From assembly GCA_016182085.1 (NCBI GenBank), contig JACOYB010000005.1:66061-130060 (forward strand): a stretch of 64,000 nucleotides of DNA, read 5' to 3'. The notes below the pieces were generated by a model. The model saw nothing but the letters and a program-made list of their open reading frames with translations. It ran no database searches and was not told the origin of the DNA. Of this stretch, positions 7,346-63,561 are shown one piece after another. Numbering within the stretch: position 1 is the first letter of the stretch; every line of letters starts with the position of its first letter. This DNA is from Candidatus Magasanikiibacteriota bacterium. GTDB lineage: Bacteria > Patescibacteriota > Patescibacteriia > Magasanikbacterales > GWA2-37-8. Position numbers and translations under genes: made by a program.

Positions 7346-8062
7346 TCATAATTCGCTTGATTCTCCGGCGGTTACGGGCACCGACAGGCCGCTTAAATAT
7401 TTCGCTTTATCGGATATTAAAAATAATACTACTTCGGCAACTTCTTCGGGCGCTACCAAATGTTTCATTGGATTTTTTTCAACCAAAAAATCATCCATAC
7501 GGCCCGGAATATCTTTATTAAGCTTTGTTCTCATAAAACCCGGAGCAACCGCATGTACGCGCACGCCATGAACGAGAAGCTCGTGGTTCATTTGTCGCAA
7601 CACGCCCCGCAAAGCATATTTAGCCGCGACATATCCGCCCATTTTACCAGATGTGTAATTTGGCTCAGTTACGGCTGAGGTAACTCCGATAACCGCGCCA
7701 TGTTTTTGATTTTTCATAACTTGGCCAATTTCTTTCAGCACATTAAAGCCGCCAAAAACCAACGTCTCAAAATCTTCCCGGAATTCTTCGGCGGATAAAT
7801 CCAGCATATGTTGGCGCTTGATTTCCGAGGTAGCAGTGTAAATACAGGCATCAATATTGTTAAACTTTTCAATAATTTGTCTTATGGCTTCTTGTACTTG
7901 CGCCATGTCTCTAATATCACACTTAAAAAATACATATTCTGAATTGGCATCAAAACTTCTGGATATAATCGCTACCGCGTATCCTTGCCCGGCTAATTTT
8001 TTTGCCACAGCCTTGCCGACATCGCCATATCCGCAAACTATAGCTACTTTAGGATTTTTCAT
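7346..8062 (-). CDS. Short-chain dehydrogenase/reductase (3-oxoacyl-ACP reductase-like)
   Basis: N-terminal GxGxxG-like Rossmann segment VAIVCGYGDVGKAVAKKL. SDR YxxxK region (YVAAKYAL). 238 aa. Confidence 0.85.
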   Translation of the reverse strand: MKNPKVAIVCGYGDVGKAVAKKLAGQGYAVAIISRSFDANSEYVFFKCDIRDMAQVQEAIRQIIEKFNNIDACIYTATSEIKRQHMLDLSAEEFREDFETLVFGGFNVLKEIGQVMKNQKHGAVIGVTSAVTEPNYTSGKMGGYVAAKYALRGVLRQMNHELLVHGVRVHAVAPGFMRTKLNKDIPGRMDDFLVEKNPMKHLVAPEEVAEVVLFLISDKAKYLSGLSVPVTAGESSEL

Positions 8063-8066
8063 ATGA

Positions 8067-8486
8067 TTATTTTAATAATTTTACCAGAGCCTTTCCTTCG
8101 ATCATGCGTTCGCCTGTTTCTATATTTTTAATGCTGGTTTCTATTTCTATAGTTTTAAAGGCCTCAACTTTTTGAGTTACCTTGCCCGATACTTCAACCA
8201 TAGTGCCTAAAAAAATTGGTTTTTTAAATTGCAATGTTTGCGATAGGTATAGACAATACTCACCCGGCAAATATACGCCAACAAGTTTTGAAAACAAACA
8301 GCCGCCGATCATACCGTGAGCCACGCGCCCCTTAAATTCAGTAGCGCGAGCATATTCACTATTTGTATGCAATGGGTTTTCATCTCCCGAAAAAGCCGCA
8401 AAGTTGTCTACCACTTCTTCCGTAACTGGAAAAGCAAAGCTGGCTGCATCGCCGATATTAATCTCGTCAAATGTGTACTTATTCAT
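8067..8486 (-). CDS. MaoC-like (R)-specific enoyl/hydroxyacyl dehydratase, hot-dog fold
   Basis: NPLHTNSEYARATEFKGRVAHGM is a MaoC dehydratase signature. 139 aa. Confidence 0.75.
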   Translation of the reverse strand: MNKYTFDEINIGDAASFAFPVTEEVVDNFAAFSGDENPLHTNSEYARATEFKGRVAHGMIGGCLFSKLVGVYLPGEYCLYLSQTLQFKKPIFLGTMVEVSGKVTQKVEAFKTIEIETSIKNIETGERMIEGKALVKLLK

Positions 8487-8715
8487 GGCTTTTGCCTCCT
8501 TTTGATTCTACCAGTTTAGTAGCGTCGCCAAAATTTTTAACCGCCATCGCTTCGTCAAACGTAAATTTAACTCCAAATGCTTTTTCAATTTCCGTAATTA
8601 AAATAATTGCATTAAGCGAATCCCAGGCCGGACAATTATCCGGAGATAGATCATCGTGTATATTTTCTACGGACATGCCCAGCACAGCTGCAAAAACAGT
8701 CTTTAACTTTTCCAT
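8479..8715 (-). CDS. Acyl carrier protein (DltC/ACP-like)
   Basis: 78 aa from the internal Met (MEKLKTVFAAVLG...). WDSLNAI provides a DSL phosphopantetheine-attachment serine. Four-helix ACP length. Overlaps the MaoC start by 8 nt. Confidence 0.75.
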   Translation of the reverse strand: MEKLKTVFAAVLGMSVENIHDDLSPDNCPAWDSLNAIILITEIEKAFGVKFTFDEAMAVKNFGDATKLVESKGGKSHE

Positions 8716-8883
8716 AATTAAAATAGCGTATAAATAAATGGGGCGAGCGGCGATGTCTGCGCAAACACAAGCAAAGTCGCGAACAAGAACAAGATAATTA
8801 TAATTGGCGCTAACCACCACTTTTTTCTTATTTTAAGAAAACTCCACATTTGTTTAAGCAACCTGAGTGTGTCGTTCATATTA

Positions 8884-10614
8884 TTAATTATTAATTATTA
8901 ATTCTATTTGAGTTCCGGCTGTTTCATGATTATTTAAGTACTCGTCAGCAGTTAGCTCGTAATCTACAGCCTCTTCATTGCTTTGTATTATTTTAAAATC
9001 CATGCTGGCATAAAAATCTTTAGCTGGAATATTTTTAGCAGTAGGGATATACTTTGCGGTTATACGTTCTACCCCCTTGGCGTGCAAATCGCGAATAATA
9101 TAATCCAAAAATGTTTTTTCAATTTCTCGGCCCATTACTCTGCAGCTCATTAAAAATGAATCCACCGCGGCAATTTTATCTTTTATTTCCACAATCGCCA
9201 TAATAGTTAATCCGTAATCGCCAAATTTATCTTTGACTGTCCCGCCATAGACCAAACCTTCTTTCATAAAACCTTCAACTGCGGTTTCCGCATACCTGCG
9301 CGTCGTTAAATTGAATTGGTTTGTTTTATTAGTAAGTTGGGCTAGGCGCTCTAACTGGTCTCTACTATTACACCTAATTTGCATAGATATGGCAAGCTGG
9401 GCCATATACTCAGCCGGGCTTTTAGCGGTAGAAATGATATTTTTTCGCGTTAACTCAGCCGCGTACATTTTGCCTTTGGACTTATCTTCTTCGGTTAATC
9501 TAAACTGGCTAAAAATATTAAGTGAAAATAAAGTCTGTATATATTCTTCGGGTGAAATCGTAAAATGCGGCACAATCACGTCTGGCAAACGACTTTTTAC
9601 CAGCTCTCTATTTACCGGATCATCATCAAAGAATACTAAACTATCCATGCCAATATTTAATTCATTGGCTATTTCTATTAAGTTTTGCGCCTTATCATTC
9701 CAATTTATTTTAGTCGCGGCAAAATGTTCTTTTTTTAAAATCATGTATGGATGTCTTTCAAACACCTCATCTACATCTGTCATGTTGTTACGGCTATTAA
9801 TCGCCAAGATCATGCCGCGGTTATAACATTCTAAGAGCGCTCTTTGAAAATTTTGAAAAGCTACGCCCGGATACTCCGGTCCTAGCGCGATACCGTTTAA
9901 ACCAACTTCTCCGACAATGCCGCCCCACAGCGTATTATCCAAATCCACTACAATACATTTTTTTGTTTTTCCGGCCAAAGCATATATATACGGCAGCCAC
10001 TCGTTTGCCACATAAAGCAGGAAATCATTGGTAAACGGCATGTCAAAAGCATAGAGCCCGCGATAATCGCGAGCGTTGCGCTCTCCAAAAAAATGAAGCA
10101 GCCTATTTATATCAAAAATAAATAAATTTTTTTGCTGCTGGGCCAGCTTGTGCAGCTGCGCGTTATATTCTTGTACTTGGCTATAAAAATGACTCTGATT
10201 AAATAAGTTGCCAAACGGTCCCATATATGGCCAGGCTAAAGTACAAAACACAACTGGACCATTTTGTATCTGGCAAAATTCTTGCACGCGCTCTATAATT
10301 TCAGAAAAATGAGAAATATCCTCCGAAAAAGCGGAAGTTATATAATGATTGATATCAAAAAAAATAAAAGTAATGTCGGCCGAATTAGAATGCAGCTGGC
10401 TATCTTTATTATGTAGAAAAAAATTATATTGCTTATATGGTACGCAGTAGAGTTGCGGATAAATATTACTTTCTAAGCAAACACCTACCAATAATTTTTG
10501 CAGCGTAGTATCGGTAAAATTCGTAACAAGATTAATGCGCATGCTAGCCGGGAAATCAGCGGCATTTCTCTGTTTTAGAGTATTGGCCAGTTCAATGTAT
10601 CGTAAAGTTTGCAT
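8884..10614 (-). CDS. FkbH-like protein (HAD-superfamily subfamily IIIC domain plus C-terminal GNAT-like domain)
   Basis: IVVDLDNTLWGGIVGE is the HAD DxDxT motif characteristic of FkbH/HAD-IIIC. 576 aa with an N-terminal SGNH-like region and a C-terminal acyltransferase-like region. It sits next to the ACP and AcpS. Confidence 0.7.
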   Translation of the reverse strand: MQTLRYIELANTLKQRNAADFPASMRINLVTNFTDTTLQKLLVGVCLESNIYPQLYCVPYKQYNFFLHNKDSQLHSNSADITFIFFDINHYITSAFSEDISHFSEIIERVQEFCQIQNGPVVFCTLAWPYMGPFGNLFNQSHFYSQVQEYNAQLHKLAQQQKNLFIFDINRLLHFFGERNARDYRGLYAFDMPFTNDFLLYVANEWLPYIYALAGKTKKCIVVDLDNTLWGGIVGEVGLNGIALGPEYPGVAFQNFQRALLECYNRGMILAINSRNNMTDVDEVFERHPYMILKKEHFAATKINWNDKAQNLIEIANELNIGMDSLVFFDDDPVNRELVKSRLPDVIVPHFTISPEEYIQTLFSLNIFSQFRLTEEDKSKGKMYAAELTRKNIISTAKSPAEYMAQLAISMQIRCNSRDQLERLAQLTNKTNQFNLTTRRYAETAVEGFMKEGLVYGGTVKDKFGDYGLTIMAIVEIKDKIAAVDSFLMSCRVMGREIEKTFLDYIIRDLHAKGVERITAKYIPTAKNIPAKDFYASMDFKIIQSNEEAVDYELTADEYLNNHETAGTQIELIINN

Positions 10615-10615
10615 A

Positions 10616-10948
10616 TTATTCCACTATAGCTACAGCCGCCGCGTGAGTATCGCTGTGGCTTAAACTTACCTGAGCCGTGAATTTACGTAGCTTTTCATTT
10701 AAAAACACAACTGTTGGCTTTAGACCGTCTTTTTTAATTTCAAAATCATGCATTGAAACTGGCAAGGGCATGGCTTTGATCACAGCTTCTTTGGCGGCAA
10801 ATCTTGAAGATATATAGGCAAATTTATCGGTTTTTTCTTCTAAAACTTTCATTTCCTCCGGCAAAAATACAAACTCTAAAAAACGGCTTAAACTAGCTAT
10901 TTTTTTAAACCGCTCAACCTCCACAATATCTATACCAATACCTTGCAT
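10616..10948 (-). CDS. acpS: Holo-ACP synthase (4'-phosphopantetheinyl transferase, AcpS type)
   Basis: MQGIGIDIVEVERF is the AcpS N-terminus. 110 aa. Confidence 0.85.
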   Translation of the reverse strand: MQGIGIDIVEVERFKKIASLSRFLEFVFLPEEMKVLEEKTDKFAYISSRFAAKEAVIKAMPLPVSMHDFEIKKDGLKPTVVFLNEKLRKFTAQVSLSHSDTHAAAVAIVE

Positions 10949-10985
10949 ACTATACTATAAAAATAAAGCTAAAAATAGCCGTTAT

Positions 10986-12167
10986 TTATATAAATATAGC
11001 AAAAATCTTCTGATAAAGCAACAACGAATCGCTGAGGCTGGAAGTGACAAAAAATGGCCAACCCAAGGTAACAAACCCGAATGTTACAATCACTCCGAAT
11101 CCGTATTTAAGCCATCCTGGCAAAAACTTGGGATTAAATGAGAAAACCTTGGTCTGCAAAATAGCCAGGCCCAAACCATGATATAGGCCGAAGAAAAGAA
11201 AATTCCAAGACGAACCATGCCATAAACCAATAAGTCCCATCGTAAATATCACGGCTATAGAAGTAATAAATTTGCTATTACGAAACCGAAAAACGAGCGG
11301 CATATAGATATAGTCGCGTATCCAGCTCGTGAGCGACATATGCCAGTATTTCCAAAAGCCAGCGAGATCTTTACGCAAATACGGCCAAGAAAAATTTATT
11401 GGCACCGTAATGCCAAATAGCAAGGCGCTGCCAATAGCTATATTACTTAATCCCGCAAAATCAAAATAAATACGGAATGAGTAAAAGAATAGACCGCTTA
11501 ACACCGCCAAACTGCTTGGCGCAATATTTGGCGAAGATAAAAATGTTGTTTGTTCTACCAAATTATCGGCGATAAAATATTTTTGCGCGTAACCCAGCAG
11601 GATAAAAAATATACCGGTAATAAATATATTTTTGGAAAATGACTGATCGTGAGTTGACTCAAAAAATTTATTAAACCGTTTGATTGGACCGCTGGCGAGC
11701 GTAGGAAAAAATAAAGCAAATGAAAAAAAATCCGCGAGCGTGTGTTTAGGCAATCGCCCATAGTACATTTCAACTAAATAATGGATAAATTCAAATGTAA
11801 AAAAAGAGATGCCGAGAGGTAAAAAAATCTTGCTTATTTCCCAATTACCTCCCATAAGATCCTTGGCCGTACTGACAAGTAAATTGCTATATTTAAAAAA
11901 TATTAAAACCAAAACTATCACTACTATCCCCTGCCATAAGTGTTTCTTTTTTTGTGTTTTATTTTCTACTTCTTGCATTCTTTTCCCTATCCAATAAGTA
12001 AACGCCGACAGAAGCAAAACTAAAGCTAAAAATTTCAAGCCGTTAAACCCATAAAATACGGCTGACGAAAAAAGAAGCGACGATAAACGCCATTTTTTTG
12101 GAGTTAGCCAAAATAAAGTTACGGCCCCAACCAAGAAAAACGGATAAATAAATGTGTTAAAAAGCAT
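10986..12167 (-). CDS. MBOAT family membrane-bound O-acyltransferase (DltB/AlgI-like)
   Basis: Polytopic membrane protein. WHGSSWNFLFFGLYHG contains the MBOAT catalytic His. N-terminus MLFNTF. Confidence 0.85.
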   Translation of the reverse strand: MLFNTFIYPFFLVGAVTLFWLTPKKWRLSSLLFSSAVFYGFNGLKFLALVLLLSAFTYWIGKRMQEVENKTQKKKHLWQGIVVIVLVLIFFKYSNLLVSTAKDLMGGNWEISKIFLPLGISFFTFEFIHYLVEMYYGRLPKHTLADFFSFALFFPTLASGPIKRFNKFFESTHDQSFSKNIFITGIFFILLGYAQKYFIADNLVEQTTFLSSPNIAPSSLAVLSGLFFYSFRIYFDFAGLSNIAIGSALLFGITVPINFSWPYLRKDLAGFWKYWHMSLTSWIRDYIYMPLVFRFRNSKFITSIAVIFTMGLIGLWHGSSWNFLFFGLYHGLGLAILQTKVFSFNPKFLPGWLKYGFGVIVTFGFVTLGWPFFVTSSLSDSLLLYQKIFAIFI

Positions 12168-36364: not shown

Positions 36365-37210
36365 TTATTCAGGCACACAAGCATCATCTACTTCAACGAA
36401 CCCTCGTTTACAGTACCAACTTGATCCTAACACATAAGCGTTTGACGGTGCGATTACTTTCTCGCAAGAATTATTAACTTCCCTGTAGCCATTCTTACAA
36501 TACCAGCTTGAACCTAATATGTATGCATTCGGAGGGGCGATAACTTTTACACAAGAATCATTTTCTTCTTTATAGCCATTCTTACAATACCAGCTTGAAC
36601 CTAAAACATAGGCGTTCACTGGGGCAATTACCTTTTCACAACTATCGCCTACTTCTTTATATCCATTCTTGCAGTACCACTGAGAGCCTAAAATATATGC
36701 ATCTTTTGGGGCAATAACTTTTTCGCAAGTTTCACCGATCTGTTTGTAACCATTTTTACAATACCACTCTGAACCCAACACATAAGCGTTTAGAGGCGCT
36801 ATTACTTTCTCACAACTCTCGCCCACTTGCCTATACCCATTCTTACAATACCAATCGGATCCTAATACATAACCATTAGCAGGTGCTTTAACTTTTTCAC
36901 AGGTTTCATCAACTTGCTTATAACCATTCTTACATACCCAACCCATACCAGATGTTAATGCATTTTCTGGAACTTTCTTTAACGGACAATCATAACAGTC
37001 TTTATAATATCCGCTTGGTGGATACACAACTCCGCCACCGGCAGGATATGTTGGATATAAGCATGGATGTCCAGCATCTCCACATGTATAAGAACCAGTA
37101 TCAGAAGGACAGGAGTGCCAACGATGACAACCAGAGCGATGGGCAAAAGCAGGTGCTGATAAAGACAATACCCCTAATAAAACAACTAAAGCTAGTATGT
37201 ATTTTTTCAT
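36365..37210 (-). CDS. Secreted cysteine-rich tandem-repeat protein
   Basis: Signal peptide (AFA cleavage site). N-terminal HRSGCHRWHSCPSD motif. About 8 tandem ~27-aa repeats with consensus NAYVLGSxWYCKNGYxxVxxSCEKVIAP, two Cys per repeat. Confidence 0.7.
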   Translation of the reverse strand: MKKYILALVVLLGVLSLSAPAFAHRSGCHRWHSCPSDTGSYTCGDAGHPCLYPTYPAGGGVVYPPSGYYKDCYDCPLKKVPENALTSGMGWVCKNGYKQVDETCEKVKAPANGYVLGSDWYCKNGYRQVGESCEKVIAPLNAYVLGSEWYCKNGYKQIGETCEKVIAPKDAYILGSQWYCKNGYKEVGDSCEKVIAPVNAYVLGSSWYCKNGYKEENDSCVKVIAPPNAYILGSSWYCKNGYREVNNSCEKVIAPSNAYVLGSSWYCKRGFVEVDDACVPE

Positions 37211-37331: not shown

Positions 37332-37856
37332 CTAAAATGGTATTTCTTCTTTAACTGTAGGTACTAAATTTAAATTTTTCAAACGATACATCATCGCTTC
37401 CTTACTCACCTGATACTGCTCAGCTAGTTTTTTTAAACTTTCACCATTAACATACAAAGCATCTTTAACTTCTCTTTTAAAATCTTCTACTAAAAACTCT
37501 TCCGGCATTAAAAAATTGGCTGCAAAAAGGTCGGCTCTTTTTTCTTTTTGCGGTTTGTCTGTAAGTGATGTCTTATTTCTATAATCAACTGTTACAGTCT
37601 GATCTGTATCAAAAATAAAATGGGCTAACTCATGGGCTATAGTAAAGCGTATTCTGGATTGTCTTTCATCAGAATTAACCCCCATAAGAACTCCCCCATC
37701 TGATTTTCTGATTAAAACCCCTGAATACTCTTTACTGGGAGCGTAGCTTATATTTATCCCATATTGTGCCACGATATATTCAACAGGCACAGGTGCTTTT
37801 TTAATACCAAAACTATCTAAAATTTCTTTTGTTTTTTCAATAGTTAATTCTTTCAT
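37332..37856 (-). CDS. ImmA/IrrE family zinc metallopeptidase
   Basis: HELAHFIFD is an HEXXH motif. Paired directly with the upstream XRE regulator. Confidence 0.8.
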   Translation of the reverse strand: MKELTIEKTKEILDSFGIKKAPVPVEYIVAQYGINISYAPSKEYSGVLIRKSDGGVLMGVNSDERQSRIRFTIAHELAHFIFDTDQTVTVDYRNKTSLTDKPQKEKRADLFAANFLMPEEFLVEDFKREVKDALYVNGESLKKLAEQYQVSKEAMMYRLKNLNLVPTVKEEIPF

Positions 37857-37860
37857 ATTT

Positions 37861-38205
37861 TTATGCTATCCAACCTAAGATTTTCCCCCATTCTAAAATC
37901 TTCTCATCTTCACTCTTTATATTTTCTATATCAGTCTTACTTAGCGCAACACCTTCTAATCTTTTCGGAAAAAAACCTGACATCTCACACCCTAACAAGG
38001 AAGACAGCTTCCACAGAGTAACGCCGTTTACATTATTTCTGCCATTCTCTATTTGTGAATATGCAACCCTTGTCATGTTTAACGAATTGGCGATAGTTTG
38101 CATGCTTATTTTCCCTCTCAATTTTATGCGTGCAATTTTAATATTTTTAGCTATTTGCTCCTTTATTTCTTTATCCGCTAGATTGCTCATCTTCTTCTTT
38201 GCCAT
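37861..38205 (-). CDS. XRE family helix-turn-helix transcriptional regulator
   Basis: QTIANSLNMTRVAYSQIENGRNNVNGVTLWKLSSLLG is an HTH_3 motif. Confidence 0.8.
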   Translation of the reverse strand: MAKKKMSNLADKEIKEQIAKNIKIARIKLRGKISMQTIANSLNMTRVAYSQIENGRNNVNGVTLWKLSSLLGCEMSGFFPKRLEGVALSKTDIENIKSEDEKILEWGKILGWIA

Positions 38206-39693: not shown

Positions 39694-40557
39694 TTATAAT
39701 ACCAACCCTTCCCGATTCTCTTCTTCTTTTCTATTTAGAATATACACATCGGCATTGTATTCGTCATTTCCCACAAACTCGGCTTTTTTGTCTAGGATAG
39801 CTTCCATAGGGGCGCATGTGGAGCAGCCATCACCCGCGGCGCATTTGTACCGTTCCAACTGACGGGCCAATTTTACTTGTCTGGCCACATCCAAAATTCT
39901 TTTATGAGAAGTTTCCAAATCCGGCAGTTCTTTAGGCGAAAGCTGGTCACTGCTATCCAAATACCAATAGCTGGCGCGGCTGGCTTGGCGTTTTTGACAG
40001 TTTTGTACCAAGAGCCTATAAATCGGCAGCTGCAATGATTCGCCGTCTTCTTCGCTCTTGCCGGTTTTAAAATCTATAATATGCACGCTATCGGTATCGG
40101 GCAGATACTCCAGCCAATCTATCTTGCCGCATAAAATAATACTATCCTCTTCGGATAACCAAAATTGCGGCAGATCCATTTGGATTTTTACCGCTAACCC
40201 CGAAATTGGCCCGGGATTATTCATTACCCGTCGTATCATGTCTTGGCCACGAGTTTTGTATTTATATTCTGTTTCCGGGCTGGTAAAACCGCCCTTTTTG
40301 CCGGTTACTTTACCCCAGACCTTTTCAAATTTATCCATCAGCGAATCGGAAAATCTGGAATGCTTAGGTAGTACCGATAATGATTCCAATACTTCATGCA
40401 CGGCCGAACCCAACGCCAAAGCCGGGCTTACTAATTTTATTTTATGATTGGTTTTTGGGTCGCGGTATACGTTTTTTAAGTAATACGCGCGCGGACAGCG
40501 TAAAAAATCGCTTATGGAACTATGCGATACCCAGGTAGCAGTATATTTATCGGGCAT
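39694..40557 (-). CDS. PD-(D/E)XK nuclease with Cas4-like Fe-S cluster cysteines (stand-alone)
   Basis: N-terminal RCPRAYYL. IDWLEY...IIDFKTGK is a PD-(D/E)XK core. C-terminal C-x5-C-x2-C (CAAGDGCSTC). No cas genes or array nearby. Confidence 0.6.
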   Translation of the reverse strand: MPDKYTATWVSHSSISDFLRCPRAYYLKNVYRDPKTNHKIKLVSPALALGSAVHEVLESLSVLPKHSRFSDSLMDKFEKVWGKVTGKKGGFTSPETEYKYKTRGQDMIRRVMNNPGPISGLAVKIQMDLPQFWLSEEDSIILCGKIDWLEYLPDTDSVHIIDFKTGKSEEDGESLQLPIYRLLVQNCQKRQASRASYWYLDSSDQLSPKELPDLETSHKRILDVARQVKLARQLERYKCAAGDGCSTCAPMEAILDKKAEFVGNDEYNADVYILNRKEEENREGLVL

Positions 40558-40562
40558 AAGTT

Positions 40563-40715
40563 ACAATTAAAAGTGTCATCCTGAATTTATTTGCAAGTTG
40601 AGTGAGAGAAAAGTAAATTTTTACTTTTCCGAACGAGCGAAGCAAATATGTTTTAACTATATTTCAGGATCCCCCTGATACCATAAGATCCCGAAACAAG
40701 TTCGGGATGACAGCT
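40563..40715. repeat. Composite palindromic intergenic element (TGTCATCC...GGGATGACAG termini), containing one copy of the GAGTGAG-hairpin-CGAACGA module
   Basis: Terminal inverted motifs gtgtcatcctgaa and ttcgggatgacag. Internal hairpin GATCCCGAAACAAGTTCGGGATG. Internal module GTTGAGTGAGAGAAAAGTAAATTTTTACTTTTCCGAACGAGCGAAG is homologous to the ftsA-upstream tandem repeat. Confidence 0.6.
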
Positions 40716-43112: not shown

Positions 43113-43505
43113 TTAATTGAAAAAATACTTATACCATTTCTTGTAATTGGAAACGTTATCCCATTTTAACACAGCCGTATTCTCTTGTCTATTCTCTGCG
43201 CCTACCTCTTGCGGCACTACCACTACATGTTCGCCAGGCTTTGCCAGATTAAGCTCTGTACGCGCCTTTTCTTCGGCAAAACTATCGGATTGTACATATT
43301 TAAGCACGCCTAAGAGCTCCATTTTTTTAGATTCTAATTTTTCTGTCTGTTCTTCTAAATAGGCTATTTCCTGGCGCACCAAATAATCCTGATAGTAAGC
43401 GCGGGCATATTCAAACGTTACCATCACTGCCACGATAGCCACAATCAAGACAAATAGTTTTGACTTGAAGAAATGTTTCCAACCATCTTCTCTTACGGAA
43501 GGCAT
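43113..43505 (-). CDS. Septum formation initiator (FtsB/DivIC-like)
   Basis: 130 aa: N-terminal TM helix, coiled-coil (LEEQTEKLESKKMELL) and C-terminal ELNLAKPGEHVVVV, typical of FtsB/DivIC. Confidence 0.65.
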   Translation of the reverse strand: MPSVREDGWKHFFKSKLFVLIVAIVAVMVTFEYARAYYQDYLVRQEIAYLEEQTEKLESKKMELLGVLKYVQSDSFAEEKARTELNLAKPGEHVVVVPQEVGAENRQENTAVLKWDNVSNYKKWYKYFFN

Positions 43506-59866: not shown

Positions 59867-61081
59867 TTATATACCCATTTTCTTCCTGATAAAGGCCGGT
59901 ATTTCCAAATCATCATCAGGATTTTTTTCCTTAGCTGGAGGGGTGATAGGATTTCGAGATAACGGGGTCGGAGTTACGGTAGGATTATGAATAATTTGTT
60001 TAAATTTCTTCTCTTCCTCTTCTTCATCCTTTTGTACTCGCCTCATGAAGTTGCTTGGCGCGTATTTGCTGCTGGAAAAAAATGACTGGGCAGGCTGCTC
60101 TTCTTCAACTGCAGAAAAATTAGCACGACGATCTTCAAAGCCAGTGGCAATCACCGCGATACGCATGCTGCCATTTAAGGATTCGTCAATCGTGGCGCCA
60201 AAAATAACTTTGGCATCCTCGGAAGCAGAGCTGGTAACAATCTTGGCCGCTTCGCTAACTTCACTCATGGTCATATCCGGGCCGCCAGTAATGGTAAATA
60301 AGATACCTCGGGCACCATCTATGGAAAGCTCCAGAAGCGGACTGGAAATAGCCATTTTCGCGGCGTCTATGGCCCTATTTTCACCCGTGCCACTGCCAAT
60401 ACCCATAAGGGCGGAGCCGGCATTATGCATAATAGTCTTTACGTCGGCAAAGTCTACGTTGATAAGACCGGGAATTGTAATAAGTTCGGCAATACCCTGA
60501 ACACCTTGACGTAAAATATCATCTACAATTTTAAATGATTCTAGAAGCGTGGTTTTTTTATCTATAATTTGTAAAATCCTGTCGTTGGGAATAGTAATAA
60601 TAGCATCTACATTTCGAGCCAATTGTTCCCAAGCTTTTTCAGCAATATCTCGGCGCTGCGGGCCTTCAAACGCAAACGGTTTGGTAACTACCGCTACGGT
60701 AAGTGATCCGGCTTCTTTAGCCACACCGGCAACTATCGGCGCGGCGCCCGAACCGGTTCCTCCGCCCAGTCCACAGGTAATAAAAACCATGTCTGCGTCT
60801 TTAACGATATCTCTAATTTCATTTTGACTTTCTTCGGCAGCTTTTTTACCAATTTCCGGATCCATGCCGGCGCCGAGTCCGCGGGTTACACTTTTACCAA
60901 TGTGGAGTTTGTGGGGAGCGGAATTATGGTGCAAAGCTTGCACATCGGTATTTAAAGCAATAAAATCCACGCCGCGAATATTGCTTCGCACCATGCGATT
61001 GATTGCCGAACCGCCTGATCCGCCAACGCCAATCACTTTTATTTTAGCAAATGTTTCTATATCAGGTTTTACTTGAGGCAT
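59867..61081 (-). CDS. ftsZ: Cell division GTPase FtsZ
   Basis: GVGGSGGSAINRM and the GGGTGSGAAPIVA tubulin signature. Confidence 0.97.
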   Translation of the reverse strand: MPQVKPDIETFAKIKVIGVGGSGGSAINRMVRSNIRGVDFIALNTDVQALHHNSAPHKLHIGKSVTRGLGAGMDPEIGKKAAEESQNEIRDIVKDADMVFITCGLGGGTGSGAAPIVAGVAKEAGSLTVAVVTKPFAFEGPQRRDIAEKAWEQLARNVDAIITIPNDRILQIIDKKTTLLESFKIVDDILRQGVQGIAELITIPGLINVDFADVKTIMHNAGSALMGIGSGTGENRAIDAAKMAISSPLLELSIDGARGILFTITGGPDMTMSEVSEAAKIVTSSASEDAKVIFGATIDESLNGSMRIAVIATGFEDRRANFSAVEEEQPAQSFFSSSKYAPSNFMRRVQKDEEEEEKKFKQIIHNPTVTPTPLSRNPITPPAKEKNPDDDLEIPAFIRKKMGI

Positions 61082-61253: not shown

Positions 61254-62519
61254 CTATGGTATGAGTGTTTTAAATAATTTTTTTACATGATCAAGTGCTT
61301 TACCCGTACCTCTAAAAACATCACCCACTCCCGACTTACCATACCCGCTGCCTGCCTGCATACTACTTCCCCATTTTACCAACCCCACAGCCGTGGCAAA
61401 ACCCAAATCATTCACTTTATCGGTAACGCTTATCACGTTAATCGGATATCCTAAATTAGTCGGCAAACGCAAAACTTTCTTAGATATTTCTACGAGCCCC
61501 GGAAGTTTGGCGCCAGCGCCGGTAAACATAACCCCGGCCGGAAGCAGGCCTGAACGTTGAATTTTTCTAAGTTCATTATCAATTTTTTGTAAAATCTCTT
61601 CCACGCGCGCGGAAATTATTTCGGTTAAATATTTCTTTTTAACAATATCGTGTTCCGGGGACCCCAATTCAAATAGATCTATCTCATCTTTTTTGGAAGT
61701 AAGATCAACCCGACAATCCCCATTTTCCAATTTTACACGCTCCGCAACATCTACCGACGTTCGCAGCCCTACGGCAATATCATTGGTAATGAGCTGGGAA
61801 CCGATTGGAATAATAGCTGTATGAATTAACTGCCCCTCTTCAAAAACGGCCAGACTGGTAGTTGACCCGCCAAGATTAACCACCATCACGCCTAATTCTT
61901 TCTGACGTTTAGTTACAACTGTTTCAGACGTGGCAATAATAGATAACACCAAGTCTTCAATATCAAGACCGGCGCGGTATACGGCTTTAGTTAAATTCTT
62001 TATTTGTGAAGATGAACCTAAAATTATTTGAGTGTCGACTTCCAAGCGTACGCCCGTCATTGAAGTTGGGTCTTTAATGCCCGACTGGCCATCAACCGTA
62101 TAATGCTTCGGCAGGACGTGCAGCACTTCATAATTAAGCGGTGTTGCGATTGATCTGGCGGCTTCTACAGCTCTTTGTATATCTTCTTCAGCTATTTCGT
62201 TATTGGCTTTGGAAACCGCAATCACACCTTTGCTGTTTTGGGACAAGATGTGCAGCCCGGATATCCCCACCCAGGTACTATCTACAGGAACCCCCACCAT
62301 TCTTTCCACTCTTTCCAAACATGCAGAAACGGAAGACACGACGTCTTCAATGCTATTTATTACCCCTTTTTGCACGCCATCTGAAGGAAATTCAGCTGCG
62401 CCTAAAATTTGCAATTCCTGGGCGCCAGCTTCTTTATCTATAAGCTGACCTACAACCATGCGCACAAAATTAGAGCCAATATCCAGTCCGCTAATTAAAT
62501 TGCCTTGATTTTTTCTCAT
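61254..62519 (-). CDS. ftsA: Cell division protein FtsA
   Basis: Actin/ASKHA fold: ISGLDIGSNFVRMVVGQ N-terminus and MFTGAGAKLPGL. Start set at the Met of MRKNQ, because the longer ORF N-terminus is a translation of the upstream repeat. Confidence 0.9.
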   Translation of the reverse strand: MRKNQGNLISGLDIGSNFVRMVVGQLIDKEAGAQELQILGAAEFPSDGVQKGVINSIEDVVSSVSACLERVERMVGVPVDSTWVGISGLHILSQNSKGVIAVSKANNEIAEEDIQRAVEAARSIATPLNYEVLHVLPKHYTVDGQSGIKDPTSMTGVRLEVDTQIILGSSSQIKNLTKAVYRAGLDIEDLVLSIIATSETVVTKRQKELGVMVVNLGGSTTSLAVFEEGQLIHTAIIPIGSQLITNDIAVGLRTSVDVAERVKLENGDCRVDLTSKKDEIDLFELGSPEHDIVKKKYLTEIISARVEEILQKIDNELRKIQRSGLLPAGVMFTGAGAKLPGLVEISKKVLRLPTNLGYPINVISVTDKVNDLGFATAVGLVKWGSSMQAGSGYGKSGVGDVFRGTGKALDHVKKLFKTLIP

Positions 62520-62740
62520 AAACGAAATGAGTGAGTGAAGTGACAAGCTTGCTTGATCACTTCCGAACGAATAAGTTTATATCGCGGATATAATCGAAAT
62601 GAGTGAGTGAAATGTCTGGCTTGCCAAGACATTTCCGAACGAATAAGTTTATATCTGCTATATAAACGAAATGAGTGAGTGAAGTGACAAGCTTGCTTGA
62701 TCACTTCCGAACGAATGAGTTTATACCACAGATATAAGTT
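62520..62740. repeat. 3 tandem ~72-nt structured repeats abutting the ftsA start codon
   Basis: Unit: AAACGAAATGAGTGAGTGAA-[hairpin]-TTCCGAACGAATAAGTTTATAT. Hairpin GTGACAAGCTTGCTTGATCAC in units 1 and 3 versus ATGTCTGGCTTGCCAAGACAT in unit 2. Stems differ but the structure is conserved. Confidence 0.8.
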
Positions 62741-62759
62741 TTATAGCTGGTCTATTATA

Positions 62760-63128
62760 TCACCATTTAAACAGGTCTTTCAAATAGGGGTACAGGATCA
62801 TAACTCCCACAACCAGAGCTACCAGGGAAGTTAGAAGCACCGCTCCAGCCATTACATCCTTGATTACATATACATAATGATGTAATCGGGGTTTGAGCAA
62901 ATCACTGAAATACTCAAAAACCGTATTTAAAATTTCTACGAGAAGCACCAGAAACACTAAAAGAATTACAAGTATCATTTCCCAGGTTTGCAGCGGTAAA
63001 AAAATTGCAGCTACTAAAACCAGCGCTCCTGCCACAACTTGAATTCTAAAATTTTGTTCTGATTTAAAAACATGCCCCAGTCCCCGGCCCGCGGCGGCAA
63101 AACTTTTTACTAATCTGGATAAAACCAT
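62760..63128 (-). CDS. dgkA: Diacylglycerol/undecaprenol kinase (DgkA family)
   Basis: 122 aa, three TM helices. Prokaryotic DAGK motif region EILNTVFEYFSD. Confidence 0.75.
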   Translation of the reverse strand: MVLSRLVKSFAAAGRGLGHVFKSEQNFRIQVVAGALVLVAAIFLPLQTWEMILVILLVFLVLLVEILNTVFEYFSDLLKPRLHHYVYVIKDVMAGAVLLTSLVALVVGVMILYPYLKDLFKW

Positions 63129-63132
63129 ACAG

Positions 63133-63561
63133 CTAGTTATTTAAAAAATCATCCACAATATTTTCTTGAATACCAAACATTACTTTTGCTTCCTTTTTTT
63201 CTATGTGGTCGTGGCCGATAATATGCAGAAAACCATGAGCGAGCATCCGCACAAACTCCTCTTCCGAATCTATACGAAGCTCTTTTGCCTGCTTTGCTAT
63301 TTGCGGATAAGAAATATAAATCTGCCCTAAATAACTTGATTTAATTATCTTATCTTCCTGCCAAGCAAAAGATAGAACATCGGTCGTTTTATTTAATCCT
63401 CTATAGTGAAAATTCAAACTTTTCATTTCCTTATCTCCTACGATGTTTACTTCCACTTCACCGTTTATTTTTGTATGCTTATAAATAAGTTTGAACACTT
63501 TTTTTATACCCTCCAAACTCCACGGATTTTTCACTCGTTTATTTAATTCAAAAGATAGCAT
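63133..63561 (-). CDS. ybeY: rRNA maturation endoribonuclease YbeY
   Basis: HGFLHIIGHDH is the H-x3-H-x5-H zinc motif. Confidence 0.85.
   Translation of the reverse strand: MLSFELNKRVKNPWSLEGIKKVFKLIYKHTKINGEVEVNIVGDKEMKSLNFHYRGLNKTTDVLSFAWQEDKIIKSSYLGQIYISYPQIAKQAKELRIDSEEEFVRMLAHGFLHIIGHDHIEKKEAKVMFGIQENIVDDFLNN

Follow-up and report, generated by a model that had tools for sequence, protein, structure and literature searches.

Several classes of small structured repeats and recombination sites are known from bacteria, and the element described in this work resembles each of them in part. REPs and BIMEs, found in Proteobacteria and mobilised by RAYT Y1 transposases, are imperfect palindromes of 20-40 nt whose hairpin carries a conserved sequence at its foot; they are multi-copy and intergenic, often clustered and present in both orientations, their hairpin shows bulges and wobbles on one strand, and no transposase is encoded inside them. 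All of this holds for the present element as well. MITEs such as Correia of Neisseria, RUP and BOX of Streptococcus, and ERIC are non-autonomous long-hairpin elements of ~70-150 nt, which share with it insertion polymorphism between strains and which, like it, can be transcribed together with neighbouring genes and can provide promoter-like boxes (TTGCAA in copy 4, see below). As in PATEs, which derive from IS200/IS605, and in integron attC sites, function apparently resides in one folded strand with extrahelical bases and conserved nucleotides at the hairpin foot, no target duplication is obvious and, as in attC, the top of the hairpin is variable. TIGR arrays of CPR bacteria, finally, are made of tandem units in which variable palindromic stems surround two loop segments of 8-12 nt (Faure et al. 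2025, PMC12045711), and the tandem stem-loops studied here, with their variable palindromic stems and two short internal segments, look much the same on the surface.

Our element represents an apparently undescribed family of small hairpin-forming repeats found across Patescibacteria (CPR), bacteria whose genomes are very small and tightly packed and in which few mobile elements have been recognised. No description of it was found in Rfam 15 or in the full-text literature searched. In the stretch of 64,000 nt analysed here (the window), a search against Rfam at gathering threshold and at E <= 10 returned only tRNAs (two, elsewhere in the window) and two chance matches.

A sequence-only reading of the window had described three tandem hairpin repeats of ~72 nt fused to the ftsA start codon. 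Tandem Repeats Finder delimits this array at 62518-62737 (period 72, 3.1 copies, score 313), and a repeat search of the window finds three 76-nt copies with identities of 100, 80 and 95%. The ftsA ATG is the reverse complement of 62517-62519, so the outer stem of unit 1 indeed overlaps the AT of the codon. Unit 3 is 95% and unit 2 only 80% identical to unit 1; this A-B-A pattern suggests that two different copies came to lie side by side and that one of them was then duplicated. A fourth copy, in the same orientation upstream of a gene taken to be Cas4-like, was likewise found where that reading had placed it (40589-40647); the gene does encode a nuclease, but a stand-alone PD-(D/E)XK one (PF12705). 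The pattern GAGTGAG..CCGAACGA matches the window four times (starts 62529, 62601, 62673 and 40600, all on the + strand), with 0.00 matches expected by chance from shuffled sequence. A covariance model recovers the same four copies at 46-57 bits, the next-best match scoring 9 bits.

Positions of the repeat units, their parts and the adjoining features in the window
Feature	Position	Strand	Remarks
Unit 1 (closest to ftsA)	62518-62589	+	54.0 bits; minimum-energy fold is the rod, -18.3 kcal/mol
Unit 1, outer stem P1	62518-62523 with 62575-62580		ATAAAC with GTTTAT
Unit 1, core halves	62529-62539 and 62561-62570		5' half GAGTGAGTGAA; 3' half TTCCGAACGA
Unit 1, tip hairpin P2	62540-62560
Unit 2	62590-62661	+	53.8 bits
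Unit 2, outer stem P1	62590-62595 with 62647-62652		ATAATC with GTTTAT
Unit 2, core halves	62601-62611 and 62633-62642
Unit 2, tip hairpin	62612-62632		ATGTCTGGCTTGCCAAGACAT; 10 of 21 positions unlike units 1 and 3, pairing kept at all
Unit 3 (distal)	62662-62740	+	56.6 bits
Unit 3, outer stem P1	62662-62667 with 62719-62724		ATAAAC with GTTTAT
Unit 3, core halves	62673-62683 and 62705-62714
Unit 3, tip hairpin	62684-62704		identical to unit 1 tip
Unit 3, end	62719-62739		small terminal hairpin
Copy 4 (single element, another subfamily)	40589-40647	+	46.1 bits
Copy 4, outer stem P1	40589-40594 with 40642-40647		ATTTGC with GCAAAT
Copy 4, core halves	40600-40610 and 40627-40636
Copy 4, tip hairpin	40611-40626
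ftsA	61254-62519	-	421 aa; protein 100% identical to one named FtsA, Candidatus Magasanikbacteria
PD-(D/E)XK nuclease gene (downstream of copy 4)	39694-40557	-	PF12705, E = 2.4e-24
Sigma-70-type promoter	62754-62783	-	TTGAAA-18-TGaTATAAT; 11/12 match, extended -10

The genes around the array, ybeY (63133-63561), a dgkA-like gene (62760-63128), ftsA, whose orthologues carry Pfam SHS2_FTSA/FtsA, ftsZ (59867-61081) and nrdR, all lie on the minus strand; the + strand is the C-rich, lagging strand across the entire window. Directly upstream of the array in gene orientation stands the near-consensus promoter listed in the table, so that the array is most likely transcribed in the ftsA leader and probably lies as a whole within the ~225 nt of it. 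A sigma-70 promoter scan listed none inside the units; on the sense strand the P1 arm reads TATAWW, and weak internal -10 boxes are therefore possible. The missing Shine-Dalgarno sequence, which had been taken as a sign of regulation, is ordinary in the window, as an SD-like motif precedes only about 11 of its 57 predicted starts even by a lenient test, and many window genes have a TAnnnT box 6-11 nt before the ATG. Copy 4 sits within a lineage-specific spacer of ~117 nt upstream of the nuclease gene, and its P1 arm, read in gene orientation, gives TTGCAA, spaced from a TTTAAT box as a -35 box would be.

On the + strand each unit of the array consists of the P1 5' arm ATAAAC, GAAAT, GAGTGAG-T-GAA, the 21-nt P2 tip, TTC-CGAACGA, ATAA, the P1 3' arm GTTTAT and a short linker; together with the next unit, the linker makes up a small hairpin. 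Copy 4 follows the same plan with P1 ATTTGC/GCAAAT and another tip, and the canonical core of the family can be written as GAGTGAG-N-GAA, hairpin, TTCCGAACGA. The conserved flanks and the variable tip had been recognised before; the outer stem had been missed. Unit 2 does have another palindrome than units 1 and 3, though not a completely different one, since a central GCTTGC is common to both, and the stems are not perfect, each of them having a one-base bulged A.

Each unit can fold on the GAGTGAG strand as one continuous rod. What appears to be an internal loop can be written as an unbroken helix: P1 is followed by two junction pairs, a G·A/A·G step, a G-C and a U-A pair, a second G·A/A·G step, a G-C pair, a one-base bulge, GAA/UUC and finally the variable, almost perfectly palindromic P2 tip. 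In the ftsA subfamily there is a third such G·A/A·G step. Every GA step stands in a pyrimidine-GA-purine context, in which tandem sheared G·A pairs form. The ViennaRNA minimum-energy fold of single units is this rod, with -18.3, -14.5 and -17.9 kcal/mol on the + strand, whereas the complement, where the G·A positions become U·C/C·U mismatches, reaches only -13.4, -12.6 and -14.5 kcal/mol. A kink-turn (L7Ae-type) or box C/D motif was also considered for the core and rejected: tandem G·A steps are there, but the bulge is a single nucleotide where a kink-turn has three, it is on the wrong strand, and a G-C pair stands between it and the G·A step.

Pairing is maintained through extensive sequence change. 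In 33 copies of equal length (among the matches listed), 95.6% of tip and junction positions are paired as against 77% in shuffles, and 114 double changes were counted as against 40, a value reached in none of 500 shuffles; the claim that structure is kept through different stems, beyond what a recent duplication would give, is thus borne out. For P1, the figures are 90.7% paired and 101 double changes (46 copies, among the matches listed). A covariance-model search of the collected loci also uncovered changes inside the core. In the variants GAGCGAG/CGAGCGA and GAGGGAG/CGACCGA both partners of the U-A pair have changed together, in GAGTGAG/CGAGCGA the pair becomes a U·G wobble, and a short form of the core has one G·A module only. 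These variants support the helix model. Twelve of the additional copies found in the collected loci have variant cores and six the canonical one; the perfect core identity of our first set is due in part to the collection of loci by exact core. Some of the apparent covariation may stem from a process at the level of DNA: intrastrand template switching that perfects palindromes could give the all-compensatory differences between tips, together with the matches between P1 and tRNA sequences described below.

Covariation, wobble pairs and variants of the core all point to the GAGTGAG strand as the one that folds. Of the tip hairpins among the matches listed, 56 are more stable on this strand and 17 on the other, with 47 ties, and G·U pairs in the tip number 48 on the GAGTGAG strand and 16 on its complement. 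The same strand is favoured by G·U pairs in P1 of subfamilies other than that of ftsA (22 versus 7, among the matches listed), by the U·G core variants and, within the ftsA subfamily itself, by the better tip fold (9 versus 1) and by G·U pairs (5 versus 0). If cytosines were deaminated on the exposed sense or leading strand, this would be expected to push in the opposite direction. The bias therefore looks like the outcome of selection acting on the GAGTGAG strand in single-stranded form; relative to ftsA and the PD-(D/E)XK nuclease gene, this strand is antisense. DNA energy parameters, which contain no tandem G·A term, give no difference between strands; RNA and single-stranded DNA are both compatible with the data as the relevant molecule. 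Whole-array folds were discarded as a test of strand: they are dominated by units 1 and 3, whose identical palindromes pair with each other, and z is about -7 on both strands.

An exact-pattern scan of one genome per species found at least 117 genome stretches with the exact 20-nt core, nearly all of them in MAGs labelled Patescibacteria, including Saccharibacteria, Paceibacterota and Magasanik-, Kaiser-, Uhr-, Moran-, Falkow-, Yonath- and Sungbacteria. Among the matches listed there are at least three loci per MAG; tandem pairs with a period of 75-86 nt occur at L035, L037, L065, L070 and L080, and every cluster is made of direct repeats running head-to-tail (period 72-86 nt). Among the ORF families near the at least 117 loci, only EF-G/EF-Tu, glycosyltransferases and ABC ATPases stand out, and a serine recombinase lies near just three loci.

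Subfamilies can be defined by junction and P1, and the ftsA array belongs to one of them, subfamily A, with the junction AT...AT and the third G·A step. Among the matches listed, the gene on the GAGTGAG 5' side is antisense to the element in 27 of 30 subfamily A copies, and its ATG is exactly 9 nt away in at least 24 of the 30. These genes code for ribosomal proteins L24, L34, L36, L31, S4 and L11, for IF2, SSB, FtsA, PilC, a response regulator and others. Also among the matches listed are seven or eight tRNA genes whose 5' end lies 0-3 nt from an element antisense to them, and two whose 3' end lies 0-4 nt from an element in sense orientation; in these tRNA-flanking copies the acceptor sequence of the tRNA itself serves as the P1 5' arm and has its match in the 3' arm. 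Such strict placement at start codons and tRNAs needs either precise targeting to transcription starts or strong selection. All remaining subfamilies show no preference (5' side 32 sense and 36 antisense, 3' side 28 and 40, among the matches listed) and often lie after stop codons or between convergent genes, so that orientation relative to neighbouring genes, a check suggested with the sequence-only reading, turned out random outside the ftsA subfamily. An orientation set by replication was considered too. Among the matches listed with clear skew, the GAGTGAG strand is C-rich at 44 loci and G-rich at 26, the same modest bias as that of gene direction, and this is not decisive.

Relatives of the Candidatus Magasanikbacteria MAG that contains the window allow us to trace back recent changes. 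We compared the syntenic ybeY-dgkA-ftsA-ftsZ-nrdR region with that of five relatives (L118-L122), and the array is absent upstream of ftsA in all five. The closest, L118, whose FtsA is 99% identical, shares the promoter down to the last letter (TTTGAAAGACCTGTTTAAATGGTGATATAATAGACCAGCT); after it come a plain leader of 40 nt and the ATG. In the window, an array of 221 nt stands in place of this leader. The ftsA site is also free of the element in L119-L122 (86-89% identity). L118 in turn has a variant element cleanly inserted (75 nt) in the ftsZ-nrdR spacer; this insertion is absent from the window and from three relatives, and its ends are ambiguous by only 4 nt (ATAA). The site upstream of a Laminin_G_3 gene is occupied in L118 and L119. 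In L121 and L122 it is empty, and the distance there between a TGgTATAAT box and the ATG, 8-11 nt, is typical of leaderless mRNAs. The copy 4 site is empty in three genomes of 84-87% identity (L123-L125), and the spacer there measures 33-39 nt. Presence or absence of the element is therefore polymorphic at four sites (the ftsA leader, the ftsZ-nrdR spacer and the regions upstream of the Laminin_G_3 and nuclease genes). Elements are gained and lost between close relatives and form short tandem arrays, and the copies before ftsA are recent insertions, not a conserved regulator of cell division.

Further evidence comes from a copy elsewhere. The exact tip hairpin of units 1 and 3 recurs once, in a groundwater metagenome; a truncated second unit comes after it, and it is flush (9 nt) with the start codon of an MgtE-like gene. 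The tip sequence therefore travels with the element as it is copied to new sites and does not evolve in place.

Despite the resemblances listed at the outset, the element differs from each of these classes. Its foot is GAGTGAG/CGAACGA with tandem G·A pairs (GAGTGAG-N-GAA), while that of REPs is GTAG; its clusters run head-to-tail, while REPs form inverted doublets (REPIN/BIME); its core spans classes of CPR, while REPs are specific to species or genera; and one of its subfamilies is flush with start codons. No RAYT gene was present among the 20 window proteins scanned or among the ORF families near the at least 117 loci. MITEs differ in having conserved terminal inverted repeats, whereas here the conserved part is internal, P1 is subterminal and varies between subfamilies, and no clear terminal inverted repeats or target-site duplications define the ends of the element, the 4-nt ATAA ambiguity at the one clean insertion being all that was seen. 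PATEs insert 3' of a fixed target of 4-5 nt; here, two insertions of one subfamily both follow ...ATAA and stand 5-6 nt ahead of the hairpin of an intrinsic terminator, which as two cases are too few to define a target. For these repeats no parent IS element is known, and an autonomous parent with the core halves apart around an ORF was sought in the collected loci and not found, the solo halves being point variants. Contrary to PATEs, the element is one rod and not a pair of left-end and right-end hairpins; it has no TnpA/TnpB, integrase or cassette ORF, and the R-box of attC (RYYYAAC/GTTRRRY) is absent. IS608 prefers the lagging-strand template, whereas the folded strand of subfamily A is the template strand of leading-strand genes. 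The element thus behaves like REP/BIMEs and hairpin MITEs, but with no GTAG foot, inverted doublets, conserved terminal repeats or identified transposase it lacks the traits by which both are defined. Its unusual features are the deeply shared tandem-G·A core and the subfamily flush with start codons.

Several functional explanations have to be weighed against mobility. The sequence-only reading had proposed a cis-regulatory leader or protein-binding array controlling ftsA-ftsZ. The array does lie between promoter and ATG and its stems covary, but a conserved, dedicated, riboswitch-like leader or protein-binding array of this kind is very improbable: it is missing upstream of ftsA even in the relative with 99% identity, the element also occurs at unrelated genes and tRNAs in many lineages, Rfam gives no match, and the better-folding, wobble-rich strand is antisense to ftsA, a misfit with an mRNA leader selected for its fold. 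Both observations that had been named beforehand as refuting the sequence-only reading were made here: relatives without the array before ftsA and, outside subfamily A, copies in random orientation. The main conventional rival deserves more credit, although we still regard it as unlikely. Subfamily A would be a domesticated 5'-leader module, kept by selection before strongly expressed genes, where, transcribed in sense, it would form a structured mRNA 5' region that could shield the message from the 5'-3' exonuclease RNase J, offer an RNase III processing site or provide a start context that needs no SD. The strict antisense placement 9 nt from the ATG, the ribosomal-protein, IF2, SSB and FtsA genes concerned, the adjoining tRNA 5' ends, the promoter just upstream of our array and the retention of both RNase J and RNase III in CPR genomes (PMC12641178) all speak for it. 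Against it, the better fold and the wobbles are antisense even within subfamily A, close relatives express the same genes without the element, and other subfamilies, oriented either way, are located at 3' ends or where two genes converge.

A site for chromosome maintenance, where gyrase or a nucleoid protein would bind or cleave, or where conflicts between transcription and replication near heavily transcribed genes would be handled, is less likely again. Such a role would resemble those proposed for REP/BIME in E. coli, and it would suit the enrichment of copies at tRNA, ribosomal-protein, EF-Tu/EF-G and IF2 genes, their occurrence in both orientations, palindromes that stay perfect nearly as far as their centre and have TT at the tip, and a core common to distant lineages. 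Rapid gain and loss between near-identical strains, however, argues against a required site, a wobble bias towards one strand is not expected of a site in duplex DNA, and orientation is only weakly tied to GC skew. We give practically no weight to an array of guide RNAs, TIGR-Tas-like or CRISPR-like, with the strands of the internal loop as spacers and box C/D-like flanks, despite the surface layout shared with the TIGR stem-loop arrays of CPR bacteria (PMC12045711). Here the loops are constant and the stems variable, the opposite of spacers; the two loop strands covary, hence pair together and not with a target; and the copies are mostly solitary and dispersed at unrelated genes. No Nop-domain (Tas) or Cas gene lies beside the array, whose neighbours are dgkA-like, ybeY, ftsA and ftsZ, or among the 20 scanned window proteins. 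For a CRISPR array in particular, the variable segments are self-complementary, units 1 and 3 have the same one, and the supposed Cas4-like gene stands alone.

The best reading of the array is that it consists of three copies of a non-coding structured element of ~70-100 nt, whose family is spread through Patescibacteria genomes. We consider it rather probable that this is a trans-mobilised repeat which replaced the native ftsA leader. A trans-acting factor, a nuclease or recombinase that recognises hairpins or perhaps a reverse transcriptase, would copy the element to new sites by acting on its folded single strand, and arrays might lengthen when the direct repeats made by P1 and the linker hairpin recombine unequally or slip. 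In this strain, the A-B-A array would have taken the place of the native 40-nt leader between the promoter at 62783-62754 and the ATG, and ftsA would now probably be transcribed with a leader that carries the weaker, pyrimidine-mismatched complement of the three rods. The array may thereby influence ftsA expression, and any effect on ftsA-ftsZ would be a side effect and not the reason for the sequence. Some observations do not fit easily with a mobile repeat. The event at ftsA is a replacement of 40 nt and not a simple insertion, and the array could have arrived by homologous recombination from another strain; no mobilisation enzyme is linked to the element in the scanned window proteins, where Pfam detected no transposase, recombinase or reverse transcriptase, or in the listed loci, where of all neighbouring gene families only those of translation are enriched; and the strict orientation and placement of subfamily A look more like function or precise targeting than like passive spread.

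Strict placement combined with an antisense folded strand leaves room for a cDNA or single-stranded-DNA mechanism at RNA 5' ends. Subfamily A and the tRNA-flanking copies might have been inserted at the 5' ends of transcripts by way of folded GAGTGAG single-stranded DNA or cDNA, a speculative idea about the element to which we assign a small probability. Its junction would fall flush at the first nucleotide of a leaderless mRNA (the A of ATG) or a few nucleotides before the mature tRNA 5' end, either through template switching of a reverse transcriptase at abundant RNA 5' ends or through the open promoter bubble, and a CPR-conserved protein would recognise the G·A rod. If true, this would be bacterial transposition or retro-copying aimed at transcription start sites, rewriting the 5' leaders of the most expressed genes.

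A repeat family that is common to the major lineages of Patescibacteria, turns over between near-identical strains and repeatedly lands flush with start codons of ribosomal-protein, IF2, SSB and FtsA genes and at tRNA 5' ends is a previously unlisted source of variation in genomes and expression in these bacteria. It also provides a concrete target in the search for a protein that recognises the tandem-G·A rod. For annotation it carries a warning: covarying tandem hairpins upstream of an essential gene can be repeats and not riboswitch-like leaders.

A search of 2.9 million viral contigs, and one of annotated plasmids and phages, detected no copy of the exact core. About seven non-CPR matches (L033, L051, L055, L068, L075, L078 and L113), which lie in ORFs, have no good hairpin and score 21-30 bits, are probably due to chance. 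Good copies were observed in several MAGs labelled Gammaproteobacteria or Bdellovibrionales, whose proteins are closest, within our set, to those of CPR-labelled loci, which makes these taxonomic labels doubtful.

Variant-subfamily copies of the hairpin-forming element were found in the syntenic ftsA-ftsZ-nrdR regions of two relatives (L118 and L119). They have the core GAGCGAGTAAA...TTTCGAAGCCCGA, the outer stem P1 AATTAC/GTAATT and the ends GCAAAGCTT...TAGTAATTATA. Both copies (2/2) are inserted directly 3' of ...ATAA, with an intrinsic-terminator hairpin 5-6 nt further on, and because of this shared position the variant subfamily may have a hairpin-adjacent target.

Beside copy 4, the single element upstream of the PD-(D/E)XK nuclease gene, two more small hairpins are present within 40650-40712 of the window. 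Since both fall within ~117 nt absent from relatives, the lineage-specific insert at this site is larger than the element itself.

Locations of element copies, small hairpins and example gene starts
Feature	Sequence	Location	Remark
Variant-subfamily copy	L118	12670-12744
Variant-subfamily copy	L119	15130-15200
Small hairpin TCAGGATCCCCCTGA	window	~40665-40679	flanks copy 4
Small hairpin ATCCCGAAACAAGTTCGGGAT	window	40688-40708	flanks copy 4
Gene starts	window	37864-38205, 10619-10948, 43116-43505	examples for missing Shine-Dalgarno motif and/or TATAAT-like box close to the ATG
Gene start	L121	3320-3345	as above
Gene start	L122	3130-3160	as above

High-scoring element copies also occur in MAGs titled 'uncultured Gammaproteobacteria' or 'Bdellovibrionales' (L017, L018, L025, L043, L056, L069, L080, L001, L045 and others). 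In a comparison within the collected set, the proteins nearest to those of these MAGs come from CPR-labelled loci, and the taxonomic labels on these records are probably wrong.

At most gene starts in the window the Shine-Dalgarno motif is missing, and at many a TATAAT-like box, often TGnTATAAT, lies just 6-11 nt 5' of the ATG. Together these traits suggest that this Magasanikbacteria lineage commonly makes leaderless mRNAs.

A tandem repeat at 36397-37021 (period 87 nt, ~6 copies, 60-75% identity) falls within ORF 36368-37210. Given this period, the predicted product (281 aa) is a protein of 29-residue repeats; its sole Pfam match, EGF_MSP1_1, is weak.

At 37335-38205 an HTH_3 (Xre-type) gene adjoins a Peptidase_M78 (ImmA/IrrE-type) gene, a pairing typically seen in mobile-element or stress-switch modules. 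Next, on the opposite strand, comes a DUF3892 gene. In one relative a 23S_rRNA_IVP/bAvd-type gene (L122:13787-14143) is inserted, with the nrdR neighbour on one side and pyruvate kinase on the other. Diversity-generating retroelements have bAvd as their accessory protein, so the gene hints at reverse-transcriptase systems in this lineage.

The window cluster 7349-12167, adjoined by glycosyltransferases and asparagine synthase, encodes a short-chain dehydrogenase, MaoC dehydratase, acyl carrier protein, FkbH-like protein, phosphopantetheinyl transferase and MBOAT acyltransferase. It is a locus for cell-envelope acylation or modification, unusual in a reduced genome.
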